Virus record (IMG/VR): IMGVR_UViG_3300000117_000003
DNA from: a virus
Length of the DNA: 41,176 nt
Strand: one strand, 5' to 3'
Shown: piece after piece, positions 1-41,176 of the stretch
Layout of the letters: each line of letters starts with the position of its first letter
How positions within the stretch are numbered: the stretch's first letter is position 1
Program-made: the position numbers and the translations under genes
Notes under the pieces: generated by a model
The model's input: only the letters and a program-made list of their open reading frames with translations
Database searches by the model: none
What the model was told of the DNA's origin: nothing

Positions 1-670
1 CGAAGTTAAAGCTGATGATAATGAGATCTATGTAGATCAAGTAGGTGCTACAGCAAATATAGATTTAGAACAACTTGGTAGCGGTAACATAATAGGTGGA
101 CTTTTATCAGCACATGGATCTATGACTCCGTTTGATCTCGATGGTGCTACGATGACATTAGATGTAAATTTGATTGGTAACAATAACAAGATGCTTGGCG
201 ATATTAACTCAGATACATTTACAGGTGTATTTGATTTAGATGGTGATACTAACTCTTACACAATACAAGTAGATCCTACGAACACTTATAGTGCTGATAA
301 TGCAAATGTTAATGTAGACGTAGACGGAAGTACAAATACATTTACGCTTGATCTAGCTACTAATAGTTTATCTAGTGGAGCAGATATAGACACAATAGTT
401 CAAGGTTCATCTAACACAGTTAATATTGATCTCGATGTAGACTCAGCGACAAACTATATTGATCTCGATGGAGATTCTAATACTGTAAACTATGATGGAG
501 ACGGATATGCAGGCGGTTATTTCAAGCTTGAACATGATGGTAACTCAAGGTCGTTTACGGTGGATCAACAGTCTACTTTGGATAATGATTGGCTGCGCAT
601 TGTGTCTGACGGAAACAACGGAACGGTATGCGTTAATCAGGATGATCAAGGCACAGCAGTTGGATGTTGA
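1..670 (+). CDS. Curlin-like (CsgA/CsgB-type) repeat protein, 3' part (codons start at nt 2). The 5' part with the signal peptide is 41051..41176 across the circular junction; the full ORF is about 248 aa.
   Basis: The frame is open from nt 2 to TGA 668-670 and continues in frame from ATG 41051 (nt 1-49 = 41128-41176). It holds about eight imperfect ~22-aa units of curlin type (hydrophobic-x-hydrophobic-x-Q/D-x-G-x-x-N-x-hydrophobic-x-hydrophobic): IYVDQVGATANIDLEQLGSGN, FDLDGDTNSYTIQVD, VDVDGSTNTFTLDL, IVQGSSNTVNIDLDV, IDLDGDSNTVNYDG, FTVDQQSTLDN, IVSDGNNGTVCVNQ. It lies immediately downstream of the csgF/csgG homologues. Confidence 0.6.
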   Translation, partial: EVKADDNEIYVDQVGATANIDLEQLGSGNIIGGLLSAHGSMTPFDLDGATMTLDVNLIGNNNKMLGDINSDTFTGVFDLDGDTNSYTIQVDPTNTYSADNANVNVDVDGSTNTFTLDLATNSLSSGADIDTIVQGSSNTVNIDLDVDSATNYIDLDGDSNTVNYDGDGYAGGYFKLEHDGNSRSFTVDQQSTLDNDWLRIVSDGNNGTVCVNQDDQGTAVGC

Positions 671-1688
671 TATAGGAAGTATTACAGAACTCAACGGAAA
701 CACCAGAGTAGTAAGAGATAAACCATACGAAAGTGCTATAGACTTTTCTCTTAATGCTATGGATAAACTTGAAACTGCTAAAGGCAGAATGGGTGTTACG
801 TTTAGAGATGAAACTACAATACGTCTAACAGAACACAGCAATGTTATTATTGATGAGTTTGTGTTTGATCCAAATCCAAGTAAGTCTAGCATGGCTCTTA
901 ACTTTGTTAAGGGTACTGGTAGATTTATATCCAGTAAAAAGAAACGTATACCTAACGATAATATTGTTGTAAGAACACATGCTGCTACCATTGGAATAAG
1001 AGGTACAGACTTTACAATAACTGTAAAAGAAACTGGAGAAGCTCTCGTAATACTTTTACCTGATGAGTTTGGAGATGCTAGTGGAGAGATAACAGTTAAT
1101 ACTGCATTAGGTCAAGTCATATTAAATAGACCTTATGAAGCTACAACTGTTTATAACTTTGAGACAGCTCCAACACCAGCAGTAATATTAGATTTAACTT
1201 TAGACATGATTGATAACATGTTAATTGTCAATCCTCCAGAAACTATCCAACAAGAAACTGAAGAATCTAATGCAGTAGCAGACAATATTCTTGATGTCGA
1301 TTTCTTAGAGTTTAGTGAGCTAGAAGAAGATGGATTAGCTGAAGATGAACTTGAATATACTGAGTTAGATATAGATTATCTTGCTGCTAATTTTCTTGAG
1401 GATCTTTTAGACATTATTCAAGAAGTAGATGAGTTATCTAAAGCAGACAAAGCACTGTCAGCCGATGGTATCAAAGGTACTGCTATTGGTTATGATAGCG
1501 ACACTCAAATAAATACATTTGTAAACGATAGTGAAGTTAAGTTTATTAGACAAGTAGAAGATAACTTACAAATGCAAGTATCTAAAGATGGCTCTTATAA
1601 CATCCGTATAGATCAAAGTGGAAAAGTAAATCAGGTAACAACGAATGGCGGTAGTTCATCTACCATAACAATCAAACAAGGTAGCTAA
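492..1688 (+). CDS. FecR-domain (LipL45-like) protein, probably exported or a lipoprotein; likely start at 534/537
   Basis: FecR-type pattern: GRMGVTFRDETTIRLTEHSNVIIDEF...ALNFVKGTGRFIS...VVRTHAATIGIRGTDFTITV...ALVILLPD...GEITV. An acidic linker follows, and the C-terminus YNIRIDQSGKVNQVTTNGGSSSTITIKQ resembles a curlin unit. Mets at 534/537 give MMVTQGRLRWINSLLWIMIGC, which looks like a signal peptide plus lipobox. Downstream of these, the only candidate starts before the FecR domain (which begins ~672) are ATG 642 and TTG 660, neither of which gives an export signal. Confidence 0.6.
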   Translation: MMETDMQAVISSLNMMVTQGRLRWINSLLWIMIGCALCLTETTERYALIRMIKAQQLDVDIGSITELNGNTRVVRDKPYESAIDFSLNAMDKLETAKGRMGVTFRDETTIRLTEHSNVIIDEFVFDPNPSKSSMALNFVKGTGRFISSKKKRIPNDNIVVRTHAATIGIRGTDFTITVKETGEALVILLPDEFGDASGEITVNTALGQVILNRPYEATTVYNFETAPTPAVILDLTLDMIDNMLIVNPPETIQQETEESNAVADNILDVDFLEFSELEEDGLAEDELEYTELDIDYLAANFLEDLLDIIQEVDELSKADKALSADGIKGTAIGYDSDTQINTFVNDSEVKFIRQVEDNLQMQVSKDGSYNIRIDQSGKVNQVTTNGGSSSTITIKQGS

Positions 1689-1691
1689 ACA

Positions 1692-2177
1692 ATGAAATTA
1701 AAATTCTCAAAGATTAAAAACCTAATAGGAGCTGTAGCACCAACAATCGGTACAGCATTAGGTGGAAGTATGGGTGGTACAGCAGCTAAAATGGTAGCTG
1801 AAGTTTTAGGCTGTGAACCAGAGCCAAAGAAACTTGAAGCAGCAGTACAAAATGCAACACCAGAACAATTAGCAGAACTAAAGAAAATAGATAAAGACTT
1901 TGAAATAAAAATGAAAGAATTAGATGTCGATTTATATGCTTTAGAAACTGCTGATATCCAAGATGCTAGAGATTCATTTAGAGAAGATTGGACTCCAAAA
2001 TTATTCGGAATGGTTTCATTATTAGCATTTGTTGGATATATTTTTACAGTCACAATTATGCCTCCTGATCAAAATTCAGACACAATAGTCAGTCTTGTAC
2101 TAGGTTACCTTGGCGGTCTAGTGTCAGGGATATCTAGCTTTTATTTTGGAGCATCAAATAAAGAAGAAAAACAATAG
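1692..2177 (+). CDS. Holin-like membrane protein (resembles the 3-TM GTA-type holin family)
   Basis: Gly/Ala-rich N-terminus, a coiled segment (TPEQLAELKKIDKDFEIKMKELDVD...ADIQDARDSF), then W-x-P followed by hydrophobic helices (LFGMVSLLAFVGYIFTV, IVSLVLGYLGGLVSGISSFYFG). This layout is typical of that holin family. It is the last gene before attP. Confidence 0.5.
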   Translation: MKLKFSKIKNLIGAVAPTIGTALGGSMGGTAAKMVAEVLGCEPEPKKLEAAVQNATPEQLAELKKIDKDFEIKMKELDVDLYALETADIQDARDSFREDWTPKLFGMVSLLAFVGYIFTVTIMPPDQNSDTIVSLVLGYLGGLVSGISSFYFGASNKEEKQ

Positions 2178-2338
2178 GTTACAAAACATATATAACAAAT
2201 TAAATAGTCAAATATTTAGTCTTGTAACCCTTTAAAAACAAAAGAAAACACCAGCAATTCAATCTTAAATTTATAAAAATAAGTTAGTTGTATCGGTGTT
2301 TTTTCAAGATTAGTTTTGGTGATCTTAATACAAAAGAT

Positions 2339-2366
2339 TTGACATGTGTCGAAAAAAATGTAATCT
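2339..2366 (+). promoter_or_regulatory. Candidate sigma70-type promoter reading toward attP and int
   Basis: TTGACA (2339-2344), a 16-nt spacer, then TAATCT (2361-2366) with TG immediately upstream. It lies in a 420-bp intergenic region. Confidence 0.3.
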
Positions 2367-2420
2367 AGTAACCCTAGACATACAGAAAGCGTTCAAGCTT
2401 TTCTATAAAAACAGACCAAT

Positions 2421-2465
2421 AGATTCCTAATCTTGGGGTCAGAGGTTCGAATCCTCTTCGGGGTA
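2421..2465 (+). other. attP core candidate: 3' half of a tRNA gene (anticodon loop TTCCTAA would be Arg-CCU), not a complete tRNA
   Basis: Reading 5'->3': anticodon-loop-like TTCCTAA (2424-2430), variable GGGTC, T-arm AGAGG-TTCGAAT-CCTCT (2441-2457), acceptor 3' strand TCGGGGT (2458-2464), discriminator A. No complementary 5' acceptor strand (ACCCCGA) and no D-arm lie upstream. It sits 134 bp upstream of a tyrosine integrase. Confidence 0.7.
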
Positions 2466-2539
2466 CTCCCATTTTTATAGGTAAAAGGTTGCAAGATTTT
2501 TTCCGCTTTTTACATGTAATAAATAGGGAGAGATAAAAA

Positions 2540-2602
2540 ATGAAGCAAAAACAGTTATGGCGACCTTCTAGGATCACACACAATGGAGGAGACCTAAAAT
2601 GA
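2540..2602 (+). CDS. Possible 20-aa leader ORF translationally coupled to int
   Basis: ATG 2540 is preceded by GGGAGAGA. Its stop TGA (2600-2602) overlaps the int ATG (2599-2601) as ATGA. It is too short to judge. Confidence 0.15.
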   Translation: MKQKQLWRPSRITHNGGDLK

Positions 2603-3501
2603 AAATGAAAGAATTTTACGATAAACATAAAGAAATGCTATGGAATGAGTCATGTGAGCAACATAGAGTAGAAAACATAAGGAAGATCAAAAAGTTTTTT
2701 ACTTATGAAGACATAGCATCGAGAGATATTGATGATGTAAAAGAAGTGGATGTGGATCTTTTCATAAACCACTTACACAAAGTTGAAGGATTAGCAAAGT
2801 CTACCTGTAACCGCTACATTGCTGCTATCTCAGGATTCTTTAAACTGGCAGTTAAGTATCGTTATATTAAAGACAATCTAAAGATTAAACAGACAAAAGA
2901 AATACTGTCTCGCCCACGTTATTTTACTGAGGAAGAAATAACAAAAGTAAATGAAATATTAGACAACAGCCGTCATCCGTGGGTAAAACATTTCTTTACG
3001 CTTGGTCTAATGACAGGTATGCGAAAAGGCGAAATATTATCTATAGGTTTAGATAAAGAAGAATGTAAGAAACAAGGTAAAACTTATGGTGTTATATCTA
3101 AAGATCGCAAGATAGTACATCTACATCAAACTAAAAACGGACATGATAGGATTGTTCCTTTGAACGATGATGCTAACAACGCATTACTCGCATTGAACGA
3201 CAAACCAAGTTCGTTTTATACCCAAAAGAGTTTTTATAACACTTGGCAAAAAGCTAAGAAATGTGTTGTCGGTAATGACAATAACTTTGTGTTCCATGTT
3301 ACACGGCATACTTGTGCTACAACTTTAGCTAATGATCATGGTGTACCTACAGTCTTGATTGCCGAGATATTAGGGCATAGATCAATGGATACAACTAAAA
3401 GATATGTTCACGGTAAAGAAAAAAACTTATCGGCAATAATGAATCAATTAACAGGAATTTCAAACAATAGAAGAGAGAAAGGTAATGCGATTAATCAATG
3501 A
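2599..3501 (+). CDS. int: Tyrosine recombinase / phage integrase
   Basis: Catalytic signature: TGMRKGEIL (Arg I), HVTRHTCATTLA (H-x-x-R box) and GHRSMDTTKRYVH (His plus Tyr nucleophile). There is an N-terminal SAM-like core-binding region. It is adjacent to the tRNA-like attP. Confidence 0.93.
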   Translation: MKMKEFYDKHKEMLWNESCEQHRVENIRKIKKFFTYEDIASRDIDDVKEVDVDLFINHLHKVEGLAKSTCNRYIAAISGFFKLAVKYRYIKDNLKIKQTKEILSRPRYFTEEEITKVNEILDNSRHPWVKHFFTLGLMTGMRKGEILSIGLDKEECKKQGKTYGVISKDRKIVHLHQTKNGHDRIVPLNDDANNALLALNDKPSSFYTQKSFYNTWQKAKKCVVGNDNNFVFHVTRHTCATTLANDHGVPTVLIAEILGHRSMDTTKRYVHGKEKNLSAIMNQLTGISNNRREKGNAINQ

Positions 3502-3955
3502 AAAAGAACAAATCTTGATTATGACAAGTAATCATGATATAAAAAAAGAACATTCTAAAGGGAGAGGTAAAGAAGATATGTTCAAACATAAGCAAGCGTA
3601 TCGTCTACAAATGTTACGAAGGAAACATGGGTTAACTACAAGGAAACTTGCAGAAAAATTAGGTGTTTCAAACGGTATTGTTAGTAGATGGTGTAGGGGA
3701 GATGCATATCCGACAAGAAAGCATGTCAGAGTGATCTGTGAATATTTTAAAGTTGAGCCTGCATGGTTAATATACGGTATTGACGACAAGCCACAAGAAA
3801 ACGATTTAAGTTTTGTATACGACAGTCTCAATGATAAAAATAAAGATAGTTTACTAGATATTGCTAGAGCGTTATTAAATGCACAAATAAACTACAATAA
3901 AACAGGGATAGACGAGGAGGTGAGTAATGGGACTAATGGTGACAGGGAAGGATAG
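3485..3955 (+). CDS. XRE/CI-like helix-turn-helix regulator (alternative start 3578)
   Basis: HTH motif: LTTRKLAEKLGVSNGIVSRWCRGDAYPTRKHVRVICEYFKVEPAWLIYG. ATG 3578 is preceded by GGGAGAGG. The gene lies next to int. Confidence 0.7.
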   Translation: MRLINEKEQILIMTSNHDIKKEHSKGRGKEDMFKHKQAYRLQMLRRKHGLTTRKLAEKLGVSNGIVSRWCRGDAYPTRKHVRVICEYFKVEPAWLIYGIDDKPQENDLSFVYDSLNDKNKDSLLDIARALLNAQINYNKTGIDEEVSNGTNGDREG

Positions 3956-4556
3956 GTGTAGGGAGAAAATTAAAGATGCTCAAAAGTATTTTGTAAAAAT
4001 AGTAAGTGAGTTTATTTATAACGATGAACCTGTCTTTGCCGTGAATAAAAAAAGAGAGATAAGATTATCAGGTAACACAAAGAGACATATAGGTAAGCTG
4101 AACCAAGATCAAAAGAAATGGCTGAAAGATGTATTTGACGATGAGCTTGATATTGTAGTGCAAGATTGGATTAAAACAAGAGCGTCTTATAATGAAGATC
4201 TCGAACACCCATCAGCTCAATTGAAAAACTTTTTAGCATGGCAGAAAGTGGGTATCTTGTACCTCTACATAATTGATGGTAAAGAATCTTATCTTGATGT
4301 TGTCCCTCATGAACATGTGGAATCATTTGTATATTGGGCTAAACTGGCAACTCGTTTTATGGACTGTAGGTATTACCCAAGAGTAAAGCATTATTTCAAT
4401 GATGACACTAATGAAAGGTACGTCAAATCACCGAATAACAAAGATATTCTGGACGATTTAGAGATTGCTATTGGCGATTATGGCGATGGTTCTGGATTTC
4501 CACGTTATGTGAACTACCACAACAGCATAGTTACGACAAAAGCAACAATAGAATGA
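3927..4556 (+). CDS. Hypothetical protein
   Basis: 209-codon ORF with GAGGAGG 6 nt upstream of the ATG. No motif recognised. Confidence 0.65.
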   Translation: MGLMVTGKDRCREKIKDAQKYFVKIVSEFIYNDEPVFAVNKKREIRLSGNTKRHIGKLNQDQKKWLKDVFDDELDIVVQDWIKTRASYNEDLEHPSAQLKNFLAWQKVGILYLYIIDGKESYLDVVPHEHVESFVYWAKLATRFMDCRYYPRVKHYFNDDTNERYVKSPNNKDILDDLEIAIGDYGDGSGFPRYVNYHNSIVTTKATIE

Positions 4557-4686: not shown

Positions 4687-7317
4687 ATGGAGAACATTAT
4701 GAAAAAAAGTAATGTGATTGATGAAGTTTTGAGAGAAAGAAAGATGCTTGAAAGAGGTAAAGACAGGTATCTTAAGAGATACTTAGGAGACGATGGGCAA
4801 TTAGACAAAAGAAGGTCTAGTCATAATAACCCTCATAATATAATTAAAGGAGCTTTGTCTAAAGTATCTAAAGATATCCAAGAAAGCATAGAAAAAGAGA
4901 AAACTAAAGAAGGTGGTAGACCGTCAAGATGGTATTCAGAGATGAAGGATTTGGATGTCGATATCTTAGCTTACTTAGGTTTAGTTACATGTTTTGAAGC
5001 TGTAACTCAAAGTCTTTCCCATACTTCATGTATTGTTAAGATAGCTGAAAGAGTAGAAAGAGAAATATGGTCTAAAGAATTAAGAGATTTTGATAACAAC
5101 TTACCTAAAGAAGATAGATTTCTAAAAGGTGTTGTCGATAAAGTAACTAAAGAACACTCATCAGAAAAATACAGAAAGAACGCTTTGAGTGCTATAGCTA
5201 GGAAAAAAGGATTTAAATCTAAGTTTAAAGAAAGATGGAAAGGTAAAGATAAGATACCTTTTGCTGAACCTGTAATCAATGCTGTCTTACGAACATCAGG
5301 TGTCTTTGAGATATGGGAAAAGTCTATACCTAAGAAGACACATAAGATGGTCGGGTTAACTTATGAAGCAAGACAGATGCTAGATAAGATGGATTTCGAT
5401 TCTATGTGGAACGAACCCATGTTAGCACCTATAACTTATAAACCTATTGCATGGGAATCTATAGATACTGGTTGTTATAAAGATGATGTAGTAGCTAGTT
5501 TTGTACCTTTAGTCAGAGCTGCAAATTCACAACAAAGACAAGCGATAAGACATCAGTTAAAACTTAAGAAACTAGCAGGTGAAACTCCAGATTACATCAA
5601 AGCCCTTAATGCTATCCAAGATACCCCTCTTACGATTAATACATTCATGTTAGAGGTCGTAAACTTTTGTTGGGAGTCAGGAGAGCTTGTCGATAAATTC
5701 CCAAGAAAGGAATACTACGAATACCCTGATAGACCTGAGAACTATGATGAGTTATCAGATGAAGAAAAGAAAGGGTGGCGATTGAAGTGTAAAGAACGCA
5801 TGATTAAAAACAGAGAAGTAGATGGTGCTAGGGCAGTATTTGATCAAGACATTCGTACTGCTAGAGAACTAAGCGAATACGAGGAGTTCTATTTACCGTG
5901 GAATCTATGTTTTCGTGGTCGTTGCTACCCTGTACCATTTTTTAATTACCATCGTGACTCACATGTTAAATCATTATTTTTATTTAGAAACAAACAGAAA
6001 GTAACTAGCGATGGGTTTAACTGGCTGTGCATCCATATAGCAAACGTAGGTGACTTTGCTCGTATATCAAAAGCATCATTAGATGACAGGTTAAAATGGA
6101 CTGTAGATAACCAAGAGATGATCTATGATTGTGGTCGAGATTTTATTACCAACATAGATAAATGGAAATCTGCTGATAAACCATTTGAGTTTCTAGCGGC
6201 TTGTCATGAGTTCGCTAATATTATTGATGATGAAGATTATGAATGTGGTCTACCTATAGCGATTGATGGTAGCTGTAGTGGAGTCCAACATTATAGTGCT
6301 GCTTCATTATCGGATACTGATGGTGCTATGGTCAACTTAACTAAGACAGACAAACCTCAAGATGTTTACCAGAATGTAGCTGATAGAGTAGTGGAAAAAC
6401 TTAAGAAGATTAAAGATGGAATTGACATTGATCAGACTATTTTATCTTTGTTCCCTAATTATGAAGGTAAACTAAATTCTACAGCATACAGAGAACGTAA
6501 GAAGACATTTCCACAGTTAGCTCAATTGTGGTTAGAGTACGGAGTCAGTAGGTCTACTGTAAAAAGAAACTGTATGACTTATGGGTATTCAAGTAAGAAG
6601 TATGGATTCTCAGACCAACTCTTTGATGACTTTATGAAACCACTAAAAGATAAAGTTATGAGAGGTGAAATCAACAAACATCCATTCCAAGATGTAGAAA
6701 GAAAAGCCACTTCATTTTTAGCCGCGATAAATTACCAAACCATAGAAGAAGTTATATCGAGTGTTGCAGGTGGTATGAAGTTTTTTCAGTCTACTGTAGA
6801 TGCTTTGACTGCTGAAAATAAATCTATGCGTTGGGAAACACCCATTGGTTTTCCTGTAGTACAAAAGTATACCCATTGGAACGCTAAGAAAGTCAGGATC
6901 TTCTTATACGATAGAGTGGCTATGGTAGAGAAAAGAAGTCAAATAACTGTGAGAGAGCGTGATGAAACTAAGATTGATAGGAAAAAATCAAGATCAGGTA
7001 TATCACCTAATGTAATTCACTCTATGGATGCTTCTCATCTCATGTCTACAGTTCTCTATTGTAAGAAAGAGGGTATCAATGATTTCTTTGTTATACATGA
7101 TTCATTTGCTACTACAATCAATGATACTTCAAGACTCTATGGTTGTGTCCGTGAGGCATTCATAGACATGTATAAAGACTGGTGTATGTATGCTGATATA
7201 CAGGATCAGATACGACAGCAGTTAAATAACCCGAACACAAACAAACTAAAAGAAATACCAAAGAAAGGCAAACTTAATCTGGAGGATATCAGAGAGAGTG
7301 CTTACTGTTTTTCATGA
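4687..7317 (+). CDS. T7-like single-subunit DNA-dependent RNA polymerase
   Basis: Motif A DGSCSGVQHYSA (T7 DGSCSGIQHFSA), motif B RSTVKRNCMTYGYSS, motif C IHDSFAT (T7 VHDSFGT), and an aromatic C-terminal foot YCFS. The SD is TAGGAGGGG. Confidence 0.97.
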   Translation: MENIMKKSNVIDEVLRERKMLERGKDRYLKRYLGDDGQLDKRRSSHNNPHNIIKGALSKVSKDIQESIEKEKTKEGGRPSRWYSEMKDLDVDILAYLGLVTCFEAVTQSLSHTSCIVKIAERVEREIWSKELRDFDNNLPKEDRFLKGVVDKVTKEHSSEKYRKNALSAIARKKGFKSKFKERWKGKDKIPFAEPVINAVLRTSGVFEIWEKSIPKKTHKMVGLTYEARQMLDKMDFDSMWNEPMLAPITYKPIAWESIDTGCYKDDVVASFVPLVRAANSQQRQAIRHQLKLKKLAGETPDYIKALNAIQDTPLTINTFMLEVVNFCWESGELVDKFPRKEYYEYPDRPENYDELSDEEKKGWRLKCKERMIKNREVDGARAVFDQDIRTARELSEYEEFYLPWNLCFRGRCYPVPFFNYHRDSHVKSLFLFRNKQKVTSDGFNWLCIHIANVGDFARISKASLDDRLKWTVDNQEMIYDCGRDFITNIDKWKSADKPFEFLAACHEFANIIDDEDYECGLPIAIDGSCSGVQHYSAASLSDTDGAMVNLTKTDKPQDVYQNVADRVVEKLKKIKDGIDIDQTILSLFPNYEGKLNSTAYRERKKTFPQLAQLWLEYGVSRSTVKRNCMTYGYSSKKYGFSDQLFDDFMKPLKDKVMRGEINKHPFQDVERKATSFLAAINYQTIEEVISSVAGGMKFFQSTVDALTAENKSMRWETPIGFPVVQKYTHWNAKKVRIFLYDRVAMVEKRSQITVRERDETKIDRKKSRSGISPNVIHSMDASHLMSTVLYCKKEGINDFFVIHDSFATTINDTSRLYGCVREAFIDMYKDWCMYADIQDQIRQQLNNPNTNKLKEIPKKGKLNLEDIRESAYCFS

Positions 7318-8518: not shown

Positions 8519-10120
8519 ATGGATGATGGTAGTGATAGTAATTTTTTAAGACACATACCATGTGACAACTGCGGATCATCTGATGCTAACAGTTTATATG
8601 ATGATGGGCATTCTTACTGTTTTGCGTGTGAAACGCATACACCTGCTATGAGTGGATCAATAGACATTGTTGCTGTAGTTAACAATCAAAGTAAAGGGTT
8701 ACTGGATGGAAGATACGCATCACTAAAGAAGCGTGGTTTAACCGAAGAAACCTGTAGGAAATTCAACTATATGTTAGTTGATGATTACAAGGGTAAACCA
8801 GTACAAGTAGCTTGCTACAGAGATAACAACAATCAAGTAGTAGCCCAGAAACTTAGAGACTCCTCAAAGAACTTTACGATACTTGGGGATGCCAAAGCAA
8901 TGACACTTTATGGTAGCCATTTGTTCAGCACTGGTAAAAAACTAGTGATAACTGAGGGTGAACTAGATGCTATGTCAGTGAGTCAAGCTCAAGGTCACAA
9001 ATGGGCTACTGTAAGTTTACCTAATGGGTGTCAGGCAGGTAAAAAGTCACTCATGAAAGCATGGGATTATTTAGAAGCTTTTGAAGAAGTAATCTTGATG
9101 TTTGATAATGATGAGGCAGGTATAGAGTCAGCCAAACTATGTGCAGAGAGTCTACCAGTAGGTAAAGCTAAGATTGCCTCTATAGCACCATACAAAGATG
9201 CTAATGAAGCTTTATTAAAAGGTGATACCAAAGCAATCATCAATGCCATTTGGCAAGCTAAAACTTATCGACCTGATGGTATCACCAGTTCAGCAGAATT
9301 AAGAAGTGTTGTCGGTAAATCGGATGTAGCTTCATCAGTTTCTTATCCTTACCAAAGACTCAATGACATCACTAGAGGCATAAGAACTTCAGAATTGATT
9401 AGTGTATGTGCAGGAAGTGGAGTAGGTAAATCAACTTTCTTAAAAGAACTCATCTACCATTTACATACAAATGGAAATACTTGTGGCGCAATCATGTTAG
9501 AGGAATCTACAAAGAGAACTATACAAGGATTAACAGGTATTGAACTTAATAAAAACATTTGTATTGACCATGATGTAGCTACTGAAAAAGAGATAAAGAA
9601 AGCATTTGATAAGTTATTTAAGAAACACCCTATCTATCTATTTGATCATTTCGGAGCTTCTCAAGTAGACACTATTTTGAATCGAATTGAGTACATGGCT
9701 AAAGGTTTTGGCTGTAAGTACATATTTCTTGATCACATTTCAATATTGATATCAGGGTTAACTGGTGGAGTAAATGACGAAAGACGACTGATTGATTCAG
9801 CAATGACTTCATTAAGAACTTTAGTACAAAACTTAGACATTTGTTTATTCGTTGTCTCTCATTTGAAAAGACCAAGTAACGGAGGCAGTCATGAGAATGG
9901 ATCTAAAGCAAAACTGAGTGAACTTAGGGGATCACACTCTATAGCCCAACTAAGTGATTTTTGTCTATCCCTTAATGTAGACAAAGATAACCCAAGTGAC
10001 TACAGGTCACTAGAAGTTTTAAAGAACAGATTTACTGGTGAAGTAGGGTACGCAGGCACTTTAGCTTACAACAGGGAAACTGGTCGTTTATTAGATGCTG
10101 ATAAAGACAGTAAATTTTAA
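8519..10120 (+). CDS. T7 gp4-like bifunctional primase-helicase
   Basis: Zn ribbon CDNCGSSD...HSYCFAC, TOPRIM EGELDAMS and MFDNDEAG, Walker A GSGVGKST, Walker B IFLDHIS. Confidence 0.95.
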   Translation: MDDGSDSNFLRHIPCDNCGSSDANSLYDDGHSYCFACETHTPAMSGSIDIVAVVNNQSKGLLDGRYASLKKRGLTEETCRKFNYMLVDDYKGKPVQVACYRDNNNQVVAQKLRDSSKNFTILGDAKAMTLYGSHLFSTGKKLVITEGELDAMSVSQAQGHKWATVSLPNGCQAGKKSLMKAWDYLEAFEEVILMFDNDEAGIESAKLCAESLPVGKAKIASIAPYKDANEALLKGDTKAIINAIWQAKTYRPDGITSSAELRSVVGKSDVASSVSYPYQRLNDITRGIRTSELISVCAGSGVGKSTFLKELIYHLHTNGNTCGAIMLEESTKRTIQGLTGIELNKNICIDHDVATEKEIKKAFDKLFKKHPIYLFDHFGASQVDTILNRIEYMAKGFGCKYIFLDHISILISGLTGGVNDERRLIDSAMTSLRTLVQNLDICLFVVSHLKRPSNGGSHENGSKAKLSELRGSHSIAQLSDFCLSLNVDKDNPSDYRSLEVLKNRFTGEVGYAGTLAYNRETGRLLDADKDSKF

Positions 10121-11092: not shown

Positions 11093-11223
11093 ATAAAAAG
11101 AAATACGATAGCGAATTTGATCGCATCTTTGGAAACAAAAAGAAAAAGAAGAAACCAACAGAAGGATCTTGGGATGCCAATGGTTCACCAGTAGAAGATG
11201 TAGCTAAAAGGAGTAACAACTGA
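11062..11223 (+). CDS. Small basic hypothetical protein (53 aa, below the ORF-track cutoff)
   Basis: ATG 11062 is preceded by GGAGATGG. Translation: MSKGDNYRSVDKKKYDSEFDRIFGNKKKKKKPTEGSWDANGSPVEDVAKRSNN. Its TGA overlaps the DNAP ATG (TGATG). Confidence 0.4.
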   Translation: MSKGDNYRSVDKKKYDSEFDRIFGNKKKKKKPTEGSWDANGSPVEDVAKRSNN

Positions 11224-12974
11224 TGTCAAGAATTGTATTCGACTTGGAATCTAATGGATTACTTGAAGAATTAGATACGATTCATTGTATTGGTTATGTC
11301 GATTTAGACTCTAAAGATAAACAAATAGAAGTTTCTACTGATATTGAAGCAGTCTTAAAGTTACTTGAAGATGCTGATGAAATCATTGGGCATAACATTG
11401 TTCGATTTGATATCCCTGCTATTCAAAAAGTTTATCCAAAGTTTAAAGTAAAGAAAGCCACAGATACTTTAGTTTTATCACAGCTAGTCAAAGCTAATTT
11501 ATACAATGATGATTTCAGTAATGTGTCTTTACCTCCTGAGTTTCTTAAAAGAATGTATGGAAGCCACAGCTTAAAAGCATGGGGTATGAGAATGAGTAAT
11601 CTAAAGGATGATTATTCAGGTGGATGGGAAGAATGTAATGATGAAATGCTCAAATACTGTAAGCAAGATGTAGCAGTAACCAGAGATTTATATAGCTTAT
11701 TAATGGCTGAGGATTTCAGTAAAGAATCTATAGATCTTGAGCATACACTCAATGAAATCTGCTATCGAATTGGAAACAATGGATGGTATTTTGATGTCGA
11801 AGCAGCCAGTAATCTTTATGCAAAGTTAGCTCAAAGAAGAACAACATTGGAATCTGAGTTAACTACTTTATTTCCAAACTGGATTGTAGAAACACCCTTT
11901 ACACCTAAAGTTAACAATAAGAATCTTGGGTATGTAAAAGGTGAACTGTTTATAAAGAAGAAGGAAATCCAATTCAATCCGAACAGTAGGAAACACATCT
12001 ATAAGTGTCTAAAAGATAAATACGATTGGAAACCTGATAAATGGACTCCTTCTGGTGAAGCTAAGATAGACGAAAGTGTCTTGAGTACACTCCCATATCC
12101 TGAAGCAAAGAAACTAGCAGAGATGTTTTTGTTAACTAAAAGAATTTCACAGTTAGCTGAAGGTAATCAAGCATGGTTAAAGTTATGTGGTAAAGATAAC
12201 TACCTTAAACATACTTTAATAAGTAATGGTGCTGTGTCGGGTAGAGCTTGCCATAGATCACCAAATCTTGCTCAAGTACCAAGTGTAAGAGCTAAGTATG
12301 GAAAAGAATGTAGATCATTGTTTACTGCACCAGAAGGGTATTCAATTGTTGGCTCAGATTTAGATGCTTTAGAGTTACGTTGTTTAGCTTACTGGTTAGA
12401 TGATGATAATGAATACTACAGGCAGATACTTGAAGGTGATATCCATAGTTTCAATCAAAAGAGTGCAGGTTTAGAAACTAGAGATCAAGCTAAGACATTT
12501 ATCTATTCGCTTATCTTTGGTGGCGGTGATTTTCTCATTGGAAAAATCGTAGGTGGTAACTCAAGAGATGGGAAGAAACTCAAAGCAGACTTTGAGAGAT
12601 CTGTCCCTGCATACAAAAGATTAAAGAATGAGTTAGCTAGAGCTTATAAAGCGAAAGGTTATATCAAGGGACTAGATGGAAGAAAACTCTATGTTCGTAG
12701 TGAGCATAAACTTCTTAGCCAATTACTCCAATCTACAGGAGCAATAATTTCAAAGAAATGGGTACAAGAAGTAGATCAATTGATAACAAAAGAAAAGTTA
12801 GACGCAAAGATATGTGGTTTTATCCATGACGAAATACAAATAAGAACTTTAAATAAGGATGCAGAATATGTCGGTAACATCTCTAGAAGAATGGCGCAAG
12901 AAGCAGGAAATAATTGGGAGATGCAAATCTCCGCAGGATTTACCATTGGAAGCTCTTGGGCTGAAACCCACTAA
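11223..12974 (+). CDS. Family A (T7-like) DNA polymerase with 3'-5' exonuclease domain
   Basis: Exo I VFDLESNGL, Exo II GHNIVRFDIP, Exo III YCKQDV. Pol A GSDLDALELR, Pol B RDQAKTFIYSLIFGGG, Pol C FIHDEIQI. The C-terminus ends in His as in T7 gp5. Confidence 0.95.
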   Translation: MSRIVFDLESNGLLEELDTIHCIGYVDLDSKDKQIEVSTDIEAVLKLLEDADEIIGHNIVRFDIPAIQKVYPKFKVKKATDTLVLSQLVKANLYNDDFSNVSLPPEFLKRMYGSHSLKAWGMRMSNLKDDYSGGWEECNDEMLKYCKQDVAVTRDLYSLLMAEDFSKESIDLEHTLNEICYRIGNNGWYFDVEAASNLYAKLAQRRTTLESELTTLFPNWIVETPFTPKVNNKNLGYVKGELFIKKKEIQFNPNSRKHIYKCLKDKYDWKPDKWTPSGEAKIDESVLSTLPYPEAKKLAEMFLLTKRISQLAEGNQAWLKLCGKDNYLKHTLISNGAVSGRACHRSPNLAQVPSVRAKYGKECRSLFTAPEGYSIVGSDLDALELRCLAYWLDDDNEYYRQILEGDIHSFNQKSAGLETRDQAKTFIYSLIFGGGDFLIGKIVGGNSRDGKKLKADFERSVPAYKRLKNELARAYKAKGYIKGLDGRKLYVRSEHKLLSQLLQSTGAIISKKWVQEVDQLITKEKLDAKICGFIHDEIQIRTLNKDAEYVGNISRRMAQEAGNNWEMQISAGFTIGSSWAETH

Positions 12975-38914: not shown

Positions 38915-39102
38915 TGGAATCTACTGATAAAGATTTAATTGATATAGCAGCAGGAGCAACTGGTGTAGCCACATACGCTCAAATTTTACCCAATATGGCT
39001 GCTTTATTTACCATCGTTTGGCTGGGAATACGCATATTAGAAAGCGATACAGCACAATCAATCAAAGATAAGGTTTTAAAACTATGCAAATCCAAAGATT
39101 AA
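38914..39102 (+). CDS. Small holin candidate
   Basis: 62 aa with hydrophobic stretches (IAAGATGVATYAQIL, MAALFTIVWLGIRIL) and a charged C-terminus. It overlaps the endolysin start. Confidence 0.5.
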   Translation: MESTDKDLIDIAAGATGVATYAQILPNMAALFTIVWLGIRILESDTAQSIKDKVLKLCKSKD

Positions 39103-39500
39103 AAGATCAACTAAAGATACATGAAGGTGTAGTCTTAAAACTTTATAAATGTAGTCAAGGGTATTACACATGTGGTGTGGGTAGAAACATACAAGCTAAC
39201 GGTATTTCTATGGAAGAAGCTGAACTCATGTTGGCTAATGATATAGACGATTGCATCGTGGATCTAAAGAGAAACATTGGTTTTTTTAATGATCTACCTG
39301 AGACAATACAGGAAGTTATGGTCAATCTATGTTTTAACATTGGTATAAACAAATTGTTAAACTTTAAGAAGACTATAGGTTTACTAAGAGATGAAAAATA
39401 CCTAGAAGCTGGCGATGAAATTTTACGATCAAAATGGTCAAAACAAGTAGGACAGAGAAGTCATGATTTAGCAGACATGATCCGAAGCTGTGCATCCTAA
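39084..39500 (+). CDS. T4-type (GH24) lysozyme endolysin
   Basis: KIHEGVVLKLYKCSQGYYTCGVGRN aligns with T4 lysozyme [23 protein letters not shown]. The E-x8-(D/C)-x5-T triad is present as E-x8-C-x5-T. There is no N-terminal TM/SAR segment. Confidence 0.88.
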   Translation: MQIQRLKDQLKIHEGVVLKLYKCSQGYYTCGVGRNIQANGISMEEAELMLANDIDDCIVDLKRNIGFFNDLPETIQEVMVNLCFNIGINKLLNFKKTIGLLRDEKYLEAGDEILRSKWSKQVGQRSHDLADMIRSCAS

Positions 39501-39853
39501 TGTTAGACGATGTAATACGTCTAGTTAATGACGTAGGTTTCCCAATAGCCAGTGCTGGTGCTTTAGGTTTCTTTATATGGAAGTTGATTAACAGAATAAT
39601 CGACAACATGGAAAAGAAGATAGACCTACTCGATGAAAAACTACAGAGCATCATTAATACTTCTGAAGAACGATTAGCCAATAAACTAGATAGTCAACAT
39701 GGAATCATTGTCGCCTTAATAGATAGAGTGAGGGCATTGGATAACCAAACAATACGTCAAGATGTCTTACTAAAGACACTTCTTGGTGTTCCTAATTTAA
39801 TTGAAATAGATAAAATTGCTAAGGCGGATCGAGATGACCAACGAAAAGATTAA
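39500..39853 (+). CDS. Membrane-anchored coiled-coil protein (i-spanin-like or holin-like; function unresolved)
   Basis: N-terminal TM (VGFPIASAGALGFFIWKLI) followed by heptad-like helical sequence. ATGTTAG overlaps the lysozyme stop. No embedded or adjacent o-spanin lipoprotein ORF was found. Confidence 0.45.
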   Translation: MLDDVIRLVNDVGFPIASAGALGFFIWKLINRIIDNMEKKIDLLDEKLQSIINTSEERLANKLDSQHGIIVALIDRVRALDNQTIRQDVLLKTLLGVPNLIEIDKIAKADRDDQRKD

Positions 39854-40301
39854 GCTATTCTTCTTAGCAACTTTACCTGTATTAGTATTAATTACATTTG
39901 TAGAAATCAAAAGTGATGAATTATCTTATAGATTTAAGTCACCTTCTTTTTCAAGGATTAATACTTCAAGTCATTATTTGACTATAGAAAACCAAGAGTC
40001 TACTAGAAGACAATCAATAAAGGATCAACTAGAAGCCTATCAAGATGATATAGAAAGAGAAGCAGATAACTCTACGTTGAGTCGTTTTATTCGTAACTTA
40101 GAATCTCGTATCTATGCACAGCTATCGCGACAGATGGTAGAGCAATTATTCGGAGAGACACCACAAACAGAAGGTAAGCTTGAATTGGAAGGTAACACGA
40201 TTGAATACATGGTGAAAGATGAACTTATTACGCTTACGATTACAGATGAAACAGGCGGTACAACTACTATTACTGTCCCTATCGGTAGCTTTACTTTCTA
40301 G
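39834..40301 (+). CDS. csgF: CsgF homologue (curli assembly/transport component); ORF open from 39816
   Basis: Signal peptide MTNEKIKLFFLATLPVLVLITFVEIKS. YRFKSPSFSRINTSSHYL aligns with the E. coli CsgF N-terminal FQFRNPNFGGNPNNGAFL. The C-terminal IEYMVKDELITLTITDETGGTTTITV aligns with [29 protein letters not shown]. Both alignments are from memory of the E. coli protein. Confidence 0.75.
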   Translation: MTNEKIKLFFLATLPVLVLITFVEIKSDELSYRFKSPSFSRINTSSHYLTIENQESTRRQSIKDQLEAYQDDIEREADNSTLSRFIRNLESRIYAQLSRQMVEQLFGETPQTEGKLELEGNTIEYMVKDELITLTITDETGGTTTITVPIGSFTF

Positions 40302-41067
40302 TTGTACTCCAAGATATACAGCATTACTCGAAGAAGGTGGTATTCCTTATATAGTAATAAAAAAAGCTTCAATACTTGAGTTACAAAATGAAGAACTTTT
40401 AAAACTAAAGCCAGCCATAAGAAAACCTGTAATAGCTATATATCCTAATAGCTTTTTAGATCATACAGGACAAAGAAAGTCTAATGGTAACTTTGCTTTA
40501 TTTTCTACAGCAATTACTCAAGCACCAGAAGCTTTCTTAATAAGAGCTTTAAAACATGCAGCTAATGGTGAGTTTTTCCAAGTGGCAGAAAGAGTTGGTT
40601 TAGACTCATTGACTAAAGAAAGGCAATTAATAAGAAGCACACGCGAAACTTTTGACGAGGAGAGTGTCGTCAAACCTCTTTTATTGGCAGGGTTATTAAT
40701 GCAGGGTGCTGTACTAAGCATAGATACTAACGTAAAAACAGGTGGTATAGGAGCTAGGTACTTAGGTATCGGATCAAGTAAAGAATATAGAGAAGACATA
40801 ATTACTTTGTCTCTTAGGCTTGTATCTGTGTCTACTGGTGAGGTTCTAATAGAAGTTTTAGTTAGTAAGAGTGTTATATCAGTAGGTGTATCTCAAGATT
40901 TATTTAGGTTTATATCTAATGGTACAAAGTTAGTAGAAATAGAAGGTGGAGCAAGTGAAAACGAAAGTACATCTATAGCCTTACAACAAGCTATTGAAGA
41001 AGGAGTGTTGAATATAATTAATATTGGACTCAACAGAGGGTATTGGAAAAATGAAGAAACTAATTAG
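40246..41067 (+). CDS. csgG: CsgG homologue (outer-membrane curli secretion channel lipoprotein); ORF open from 40219
   Basis: Lipoprotein signal MKQAVQLLLLSLSVALLSSC. VIAIYPNSFLDHTGQ, FSTAITQAPEAFLIRALK, LTKERQLIRSTRE, TGGIGARYLGIGSSKEY and LRLVSVSTGEVL are collinear with E. coli CsgG (VSVYNIQDETGQ, FSTAVPQSATAMLVTALK, LLNERKIIRAAQE, SGGVGARYFGIGADTQY, LRVVNVSTGEIL). Confidence 0.9.
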   Translation: MKQAVQLLLLSLSVALLSSCTPRYTALLEEGGIPYIVIKKASILELQNEELLKLKPAIRKPVIAIYPNSFLDHTGQRKSNGNFALFSTAITQAPEAFLIRALKHAANGEFFQVAERVGLDSLTKERQLIRSTRETFDEESVVKPLLLAGLLMQGAVLSIDTNVKTGGIGARYLGIGSSKEYREDIITLSLRLVSVSTGEVLIEVLVSKSVISVGVSQDLFRFISNGTKLVEIEGGASENESTSIALQQAIEEGVLNIINIGLNRGYWKNEETN

Positions 41068-41176
41068 TATGCTAGATTGTACTTTATTTAGTGTAGCTGT
41101 AATAGCAGGTAGCGTTTATTTATTTAACGAAGTTAAAGCTGATGATAATGAGATCTATGTAGATCAAGTAGGTGCT
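41051..41176 (+). CDS. 5' part of the curlin-like repeat protein gene (signal peptide plus first repeat); continues at nt 2 after the circular junction
   Basis: ATG 41051 overlaps the csgG 3' end by 17 nt. MKKLISMLDCTLFSVAVIAGSVYLFNEVKA|DDNEIYVDQVGA gives a Sec-type signal with a VKA cleavage-like site. The frame is open to the window end and in frame with 2..670. Confidence 0.6.
   Translation, partial: MKKLISMLDCTLFSVAVIAGSVYLFNEVKADDNEIYVDQVGA
41128..41176. repeat. Terminal 49-bp exact duplication of nt 1-49 (circular closure overlap)
   Basis: cgaagttaaagctgatgataatgagatctatgtagatcaagtaggtgct is present at both window ends. Confidence 0.98.

Follow-up and report, generated by a model that had tools for sequence, protein, structure and literature searches.

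A FecR-like gene of a phage type VIII secretion module with a putative export signal overprinted on the upstream curlin-like gene

The curlin–FecR junction of a circular phage genome

We analyzed the IMG/VR virus record IMGVR_UViG_3300000117_000003, a stretch of 41,176 nucleotides (hereafter the window), with respect to a FecR-like gene that overlaps the end of a curlin-like gene in a type VIII secretion system (T8SS) module. The window is a circular assembly, with nt 1–49 identical to 41128–41176 (49-bp terminal overlap), and the compact T8SS module spans the circle junction on the + strand in the order csgF, csgG, curlin-like gene and FecR-like gene, every gene sitting in the +1 frame relative to the preceding one. 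csgF (39834..40301; Pfam CsgF, E 1.4e-17) has its own signal peptide and is followed by csgG (40219..41067), which encodes the outer-membrane lipoprotein pore (Pfam CsgG, E 2e-44; NCBIfam CsgG, E 6.6e-41); no CsgE match was found in the Pfam and NCBIfam searches. The curlin-like gene encodes 248 aa in all: its 5′ part, with the signal peptide MKKLISMLDCTLFSVAVIAGSVYLFNEVKA, lies at 41051..41176 and resumes at position 50 (41128–41176 being the same as 1–49), and its remainder, within 1..670 of the + strand, ends with the stop codon at 668–670. A first-pass annotation, made from the letters of this DNA alone, had seen the curlin start at 122; the circularity of the window, whose ends overlap by 49 bp, displaces the start across the junction to 41051, where the gene has a signal peptide of its own.

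The FecR-like open reading frame (ORF; 492–1688, + strand, 398 aa) corresponds to the +1 frame of the curlin-like gene, and the best-supported reading of the gene within it is 507..1688, a 393-aa precursor with alternative starts at 534/537. This creates a dual-coding overlap of 164 nt (507..670, + strand), read in frame 0 as the C-terminal curlin repeat and in the +1 frame as the predicted FecR export signal, with the hydrophobic core WINSLLWIMIGCALCL at 561..608. The conserved body of the protein starts with D-I-G-S-I at nt 669, exactly at the curlin stop, close to which the first-pass annotation had already placed the beginning of the FecR domain. It consists of a FecR-type periplasmic beta-domain (669..1220), a conserved acidic-hydrophobic segment (1233..1439) and a small C-terminal beta-domain (1440..1685), all on the + strand.

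The last curlin repeat of the window (...VDQQSTLDNDWLRIVSDGNNGTVCVNQDD) has its homologue in the final repeat of the curlin of Pelagibacter phage HTVC008M, and the two curlins align end to end (BLASTP, 32% identity, E 3e-17) with 7 residues extra at the end of the window protein. The repeat of the window curlin reads G-x-x-N-x-[VFY]-x-[ILV]-D and its conserved end, ..C.NQ.DQGT.VGC, contains two cysteines; despite its homology to the curlins of HTVC008M and of Methylophilales phage Melnitz, the protein gave no Pfam Curlin_rpt match (E<=0.1). Because the overlapped segment has its counterpart in the last HTVC008M repeat, the export signal would represent new coding written over older curlin coding; with an ancestral last repeat at this place and only 7 residues added to it, the overlap did not come about by the curlin gene reading through into a long extension.

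The csgF/csgG junction of the same module provides a parallel case. The likely csgG start is at 40246, and the signal peptide MKQAVQLLLLSLSVALLSSC (40246–40305) overlaps csgF, whose stop codon lies at 40299–40301, so that the 3′ end of csgF encodes in its +1 frame both the signal peptide of csgG and its lipobox (..QLLLLSLSVALLSSC), with the Cys codon just after the csgF stop. An overlap of at least 59 nt with a conserved LLSSC lipobox was present in 45 distinct related loci and absent in the myophages HTVC008M and Melnitz. CsgG of curli systems is a lipoprotein by family definition; this overlap must therefore be translated, which makes an overprinted signal at the curlin/FecR junction less exotic.

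Start site and dual coding in related loci

A scan of viral contigs yielded 337 relatives, 80 of which were kept (77–98% identity); stop codons were counted in 54 distinct related curlin genes, and synonymous diversity was calculated pairwise in the curlin frame among 57 distinct sequences. The last 45 curlin codons contained no +1-frame stop (0/2,430 codons), compared with 1,286 stops in 10,785 +1-frame codons upstream of the overlap (0.119 per codon) and 316 in 2,430 +2-frame codons over the same last 45 codons (0.130 per codon). When synonymous codons were resampled from each gene's own usage, the +1 frame stayed open in 0.1–4.6% of the trials per lineage (0.3% for the window). The curlin stop position and the tail ...DNDWL[RK]..S.G..G..C..Q.DQGT.VGC* (asterisk, stop) were kept in all 80 related loci. 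Wherever a related locus extended far enough upstream, its FecR frame was open for 37–67 codons before the 642-equivalent, and its third frame was closed. The open frame from 492 that the first-pass annotation had pointed out is thus shared by the relatives, and the stop-filled frame upstream of about 642 that it had named as possible counter-evidence occurred in none of these loci.

ATG codons are found in the FecR-like ORF at 492, 495, 507, 534, 537, 585 and 642. Their presence as such was discarded as evidence and is uninformative by itself, because curlin codons of the types GAT-G.. and TAT-G.. create ATGs automatically. GGAG-type Shine-Dalgarno motifs precede most starts in the window phage by 5–10 nt, and ATG 507 is the sole candidate ATG with such a motif (GGAG at 497..500, + strand, 6 nt before the ATG and within the curlin codons GGA-GAC); this pair of motif and ATG was found in most lineages. 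One sublineage has the frame open only from the 531-equivalent (stop-N-M-M) and must for this reason initiate at 534/537. Farther downstream, ATG 642 was not conserved, being replaced by Thr in most lineages, and TTG 660 was lost in lineages reading ..AQAVDIG. On these sequence features ATG 507 is most likely the FecR start, with 534/537 as an alternative that is forced only in the one sublineage. The first-pass annotation, which saw a signal peptide only from a start at 534/537, had correctly located the signal inside the curlin ORF in its +1 frame but had passed over 507, the only ATG with a Shine-Dalgarno motif.

The distribution of synonymous diversity revealed constraint at both ends of the overlap. 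Compared with 0.43 upstream of the overlap, the value was 0.17 (P 0.0014) over the four codons GAT, GGA, GAC and TAT that contain GGAG-N6-ATG, and at the GGA codon of the Shine-Dalgarno motif alone it was 0.08, other Gly codons having 0.4–0.7. The last nine curlin codons, which in the FecR frame encode the conserved ..IKAQ[AQ]LDVD, gave 0.13 vs 0.43, and none of 20,000 resamples was this low.

Domains, predicted export and role of the FecR-like protein

The Pfam FecR profile PF04773 matched nt 765–1046 (E 9.8e-12; 45.6 bits vs a cut-off of 24; profile positions 2–87 of 97), and phrog_37870 matched over nearly its whole length (E 7.5e-66; profile positions 21–380 of 382). AlphaFold2 with 28 sequences modeled the beta-domain (residues 45–225 in the numbering from start 534) at pLDDT 80–90, and Foldseek matched it solely to periplasmic domains of FecR-type anti-sigma proteins, namely 4m0h/4m0n (BDI_1681) and 6ovk (PupR), with probability 1.0 and E 1.4e-5 to 6.6e-5; a sequence search of the PDB with the family profile returned nothing relevant. 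The clear FecR-type beta-domain of the first-pass annotation is hereby borne out, and its wider description as a FecR/LipL45-like exported protein agrees with the FecR domain and with a weak domain-level similarity to LipL45 and Lsa33, export itself being a prediction. No anti-sigma domain was found: the ~54 residues that precede the beta-domain are taken up by the hydrophobic signal, and Pfam detected no other domain. Genes for an ECF sigma factor or a TonB-dependent transducer were not among the flanking genes (csgF, csgG, curlin-like, holin-like, integrase and lysozyme), the rest of the window not having been scanned protein by protein. Because there is neither an anti-sigma domain nor a sigma or transducer partner nearby, the protein falls outside the definition of a FecR-type regulator.

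C-terminal to the beta-domain, the model contained a disordered acidic stretch, a helix and a low-confidence beta-domain. The acidic segment (69 aa with 25 D/E and 0 K/R) has little order in the model apart from the helix at its end; the "very acidic linker" of the first-pass annotation proved as acidic as stated, and conserved rather than loose. Invariant L/D/F positions (LD.DFL.F..L ... LDIDYL..FL.DLL) are common to the segment and to its 36%-identical myophage homologues. From its sequence, this segment looks like a conserved interaction motif, not a spacer.

The C-terminal beta-domain has a conserved ...GG....I.I.Q.. end and contains QSGKVNQV (1614–1637), which the first-pass annotation had read as a curlin-like unit. 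Curlin repeats follow the consensus S-x5-Q-x-G-x-x-N-x-A-x3-Q, and the window motif, Q-x-G-x-x-N-x-V after S-x6-Q, comes close to it; elsewhere in the window, among 10,064 residues, the pattern Q.G..N.[AVIL] has a single further occurrence. The spacing noted earlier is accordingly present, but the curlin unit was rejected as a candidate. Unlike the stacked beta-solenoid units of the CsgA/CsgB curlin repeat (PF07012), the motif is a single copy among antiparallel hairpins: modeled alone, the domain formed a helix and a six-strand antiparallel meander (mean pLDDT 68.9). Neither the last 62 aa nor the last 158 aa of the protein matched Curlin_rpt (PF07012) at E<=10, and hhalign of the C-terminus against the phage curlin profile gave a probability of 0.4% (E 0.14). 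QxGKVNxV is conserved only in the podovirus clade, the myophage homologues having QGEFVQYD at this place. The model of this domain had no fold match in the PDB, and no curlin structure was among the PDB matches; weak resemblances (probability 0.18–0.28) were to the single-layer beta-sheets of OspA and the CPAP G-box. The curlin resemblance of QSGKVNQV is thus an unproven lead.

At the N-terminus, most podoviral relatives have basic residues and an uncharged h-region of 13–22 aa, followed by TKTIKAQA/LDVD, ..LAQA/VD or ..AQAQA/VE (slash, putative cleavage site), and by inspection most relatives fit the pattern of a Sec signal for signal peptidase I (SPase I), with a basic n-region, an h-region of 7–15 aa or more and small residues at −3/−1 no farther than ~7 aa beyond it. 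The window belongs to a second N-terminal class, in which WINSLLWIMIGCALCL ends 16 residues ahead of the conserved IKAQQ/LDVD. Its core is a 17-aa uncharged stretch with a best-10-residue Kyte-Doolittle mean of 2.53, and the N-terminus is a helix in the AlphaFold2 model. A Cys codon (594–596) lies in the lipobox-like IMIGC, and Cys in the context I/T-G-C was present in all lineages of the window's N-terminal class, not in the other class. The homologues of HTVC008M and Melnitz, which are 36–40% identical to the window protein over its entire mature length (38–40% by tblastn), have ordinary signal peptides, MSKWFLTFFIIFYASHSLA/SIGEV (..SLA/) and ..LLVALLILTTPALA/RVGDV (..ALA/), respectively; these sit after the curlin stop or overlap by 23 nt (range 0–23 nt), and a third example of a non-overlapping signal peptide was found in locus L084. 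Because the myophage homologues have non-overlapped Sec signals at the same place, we infer that the FecR-like protein is exported by an N-terminal signal overprinted on the ancestral last curlin repeat.

Taken together, we assign a probability of roughly 0.7 to the reading that the FecR-like gene is translated independently from a start inside the curlin gene and encodes an exported T8SS accessory, not a cytoplasmic iron regulator. Translation would begin on its own at ATG 507 behind GGAG 497–500, or alternatively at 534/537, and the first ~54 FecR codons, read in the +1 frame of the last curlin repeat, would encode the core WINSLLWIMIGCALCL behind an n-region of positive charge. Export by the Sec system would then bring the protein to the periplasm, where the mature form, an anti-sigma-less FecR/PupR beta-domain with the acidic segment and the small beta-domain, would be soluble after cleavage or possibly, in the window's sublineage, lipid-anchored at Cys30, and would act as an accessory of the CsgG/CsgF/curlin secretion system. 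Such a periplasmic role is favored because the FecR gene stays with the curlin gene in the podoviral lineage, which has no CHASE2 cyclase.

Several observations weigh against this reading. The N-terminus of the window is not a textbook SPase I signal, given the 16-aa gap and the Q at −1. The lipoprotein pattern of PROSITE PS51257 comprises a lipobox [LVI..][ASTVI][GAS]C, an uncharged h-region, Cys at 15–35 and K/R in the first 7 residues; MVTQGRLRWINSLLWIMIG/C fits this pattern with a start at 534/537, and the K/R rule fails with a start at 507. The lipobox-like signal peptide of the first-pass annotation stands as to the motif IMIGC and the core inside the curlin ORF, and is atypical as a signal type. 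The FecR frame of the distant relative L083 does not open until 2717; its sole start is a GTG, and a basic n-region is missing. The part of the overlap that encodes the n- and h-regions showed no lowered synonymous diversity (0.45 vs 0.43), and the related sequences are not independent samples. Hydrophobicity was dropped as evidence of selection, as the +1 null already had a mean of ~1.8 vs 2.63 observed (P 0.06 for the window). Finally, the role in type VIII secretion, although the most likely one, is drawn solely from synteny and localization.

Both frames were maintained in the relatives, as the first-pass annotation had proposed to examine, with constraint at the Shine-Dalgarno/ATG codons and the last nine codons and none in the n/h part. 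A signal peptide would be expected to leave this pattern: start signals under constraint, n- and h-regions free to vary as long as stops are avoided, and a c-region and mature N-terminus again under constraint. Enrichment of T3 was not seen in the overlap (0.41 vs 0.49 upstream), and the resampled +1 peptides were already hydrophobic. The curlin wobble base serves as the middle base of each +1 codon, and our reading of this null is that AT-rich genes thereby give hydrophobic residues by default.

A more far-reaching proposal can be offered only tentatively, and we consider it rather doubtful: that the whole module has been compacted by placing the export signals of successive T8SS genes in the +1 frame of the preceding gene (csgF to csgG, curlin to FecR), that the FecR-like protein is an envelope component of the secretion system and, in the window's lineage, a lipoprotein directed to the outer membrane, that it takes over the missing CsgE/CsgB functions and gates CsgG, or docks and caps curlin, by means of its acidic segment and C-terminal sheet, and that the module works within a lysis cassette.

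Alternatively, the exported FecR-like protein could be the signaling partner of a CHASE2 sensor, its linkage to the T8SS being incidental. The modules of HTVC008M and Melnitz contain csgF, csgG, curlin, FecR, a second curlin and adenylate cyclase (annotated synteny), and the myophage cyclases (L001, 7353–9188; L002, 7042–9093) carry an N-terminal CHASE2 domain (E 9e-39 and 8e-41); in addition, operons of Burkholderia (BiofilmReg) and P. aeruginosa encode a LysM-FecR protein with a signal peptide together with a CHASE2 histidine kinase (PMC5192318). We nevertheless regard this as unlikely, because the window and its 337 relatives keep FecR directly after curlin with a holin-like gene next and no cyclase or CHASE2, and because, according to Wittmers et al. 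(PMC9599517), the curlin gene is in every case followed by FecR, the cyclase being found frequently rather than always.

A signal-less cytoplasmic regulator that starts at ATG 642 or TTG 660, with the open frame being an accident of curlin composition, appears quite improbable. It is what the published label 'iron-dependent regulator FecR' implies. The protein database holds thousands of further FecR relatives, and 85 of 120 cluster representatives (~71%) start within or after the hydrophobic core, whereas 31 of 120 carry at least 35 residues before the IGSI anchor. Moreover, AAGG lies 9 nt ahead of TTG 660, and the conservation of the last nine codons could reflect a ribosome-binding region. 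However, neither of the two starts is conserved, the +1 frame is open far beyond chance where the +2 frame is not, and the Shine-Dalgarno–ATG pair at 507 is under synonymous constraint; besides, every non-overlapping homologue has a signal peptide, and the fold is that of the periplasmic part of FecR-type proteins with no anti-sigma domain. Under independent translation from within the curlin gene, most public FecR entries lack the export signal because gene callers start within or after the h-region.

A programmed +1 ribosomal frameshift that fuses the curlin repeats to FecR, within 492–667 or at the curlin stop, was also raised by the first-pass annotation and is hardly credible: although FecR occupies the curlin +1 frame, open across the junction, and GGAG lies within the curlin ORF, there is no in-frame stop or hungry codon beside GGAG and no curlin stop before 668 (no dedicated motif search was made), shifting at the stop codon would make the 37–67 open codons upstream unnecessary, a secreted amyloid subunit would, if fused, have a signal-like hydrophobic stretch buried in its interior, one sublineage opens exactly at stop-N-M-M, which indicates initiation, the homologues are separate, stand-alone secreted proteins with their own signals, and the conserved Shine-Dalgarno–ATG pair of the downstream frame is under synonymous constraint.

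Genomic setting and relation to known systems

The window represents the T7-like podovirus genome of a marine phage (41.1 kb, 35.6% GC) that carries genes for RNA polymerase (4687–7317) and integrase (2599–3501), together with primase-helicase (8519–10120), family A DNA polymerase (11223–12974) and lysozyme (39084–39500). The T8SS module lies inside the lysis region, between lysozyme and a small gene without assigned function (phrog_18771, 39500–39853) on one side and a holin-like gene (phrog_1544, 1692–2177, + strand) on the other; the latter encodes two C-terminal hydrophobic helices and is part of the context, outside the T8SS. Likewise, a holin-like gene and lysozyme lie directly 3′ of the FecR gene in L083 (3871–4798). 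Phage CsgGF pores have been proposed to time lysis (PMC9004378), and placement in the lysis region may be taken to agree with this published speculation. No kinase gene lies ahead of csgF in the window. Promoter and terminator matches within window positions 1–2700 were no more numerous than in shuffled sequence, and megablast of positions 1–4000 against GenBank phages found no near-identical match, only distant myophage homologues being present there.

The scan of bacteria returned three loci, two of them seemingly phage DNA binned in metagenome-assembled genomes (MAGs) and one a remote FecR domain; as these are phage-like or remote, no bacterial operon context was obtained. L083 (NZMJ01000004.1, 'Maricaulis sp.' MAG) has tail-like genes, a lysozyme gene and an overlapping module, and L084 (NHJA01000016.1, 'Pelagibacter' MAG) has a non-overlapping module of the myophage type.

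The phage-linked T8SS FecR gene has been published (Wittmers et al. 2022, PMC9599517), where it is called an iron-dependent regulator; we found no mention of a FecR signal peptide in that article, and the uses of 'overlap' encountered there concern other matters. Phage curli systems are abundant in ocean viromes (PMC9599517). Their function is debated, with aggregation, import and lysis timing among the proposals. The FecR gene family itself is known; our additions are the overprinting of signals, a likely location in the periplasm, and the finding that database entries are systematically truncated at the N-terminus. Our working hypothesis would move the FecR-like protein from cytoplasmic regulation to the cell envelope beside CsgG. 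It also presents a case, backed by statistics, in which +1-frame overprinting gives rise to signal peptides and the old wobble base becomes the new, hydrophobicity-setting middle base. In the literature searched, we found no description of overprinted Sec signals at two junctions of one secretion operon.

Among characterized FecR proteins, the FecR/PupR anti-sigma regulators (6ovk, 4m0h/4m0n) share the PF04773 beta-domain fold over ~145–152 aligned columns at 14–18% identity; unlike them, the window protein has no N-terminal cytoplasmic anti-sigma domain, and the rest of it is unmatched. Leptospira LipL45 and Lsa33 are similar in having a signal sequence followed by a FecR domain (HMM E 1.7e-5 and 4.7e-6), and the window protein has a possible lipobox; however, its scores of 24–26 bits compare with curated cut-offs of 350–420, so that it is not a member of these families, and the C-termini are unrelated. 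The pairs of LysM-FecR and CHASE2 proteins (Burkholderia BiofilmReg operon; PA4035-type) recall the myophage modules, which adjoin a CHASE2 sensor, but the window has neither a LysM domain nor a CHASE2 partner.

The closest counterparts are the T8SS-linked FecR proteins of pelagiphages and methylophages (HTVC008M AGE60351; Melnitz gp102; phrog_37870), whose genes occupy the same place after csgF-csgG-curlin. The HTVC008M and Melnitz proteins share the three parts, FecR beta-domain, acidic segment and C-terminal beta-domain ending in GG....I.I.Q.., and differ from the window in that its predicted signal is overprinted on 134–164 nt of the curlin gene; furthermore, these modules continue with a second curlin gene and a CHASE2 cyclase, both missing downstream in the window. 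The window is a 41-kb T7-like podovirus with an integrase, neither a myovirus nor a phage of the 59-kb HTVC023P type; in PMC9599517, podoviral T8SS modules belong to HTVC023P-type genomes of ~58.8 kb with a histidine kinase ahead of the module. Overprinting by an upstream shift of the start has been described (reviewed in PMC2268670 and PMC8227390) for downstream genes that gain an N-terminus from the +1 frame of the upstream 3′ end. The present case resembles these and would differ from them in that a Sec export signal is overprinted, at two junctions (csgF/csgG and curlin/FecR) of one operon.

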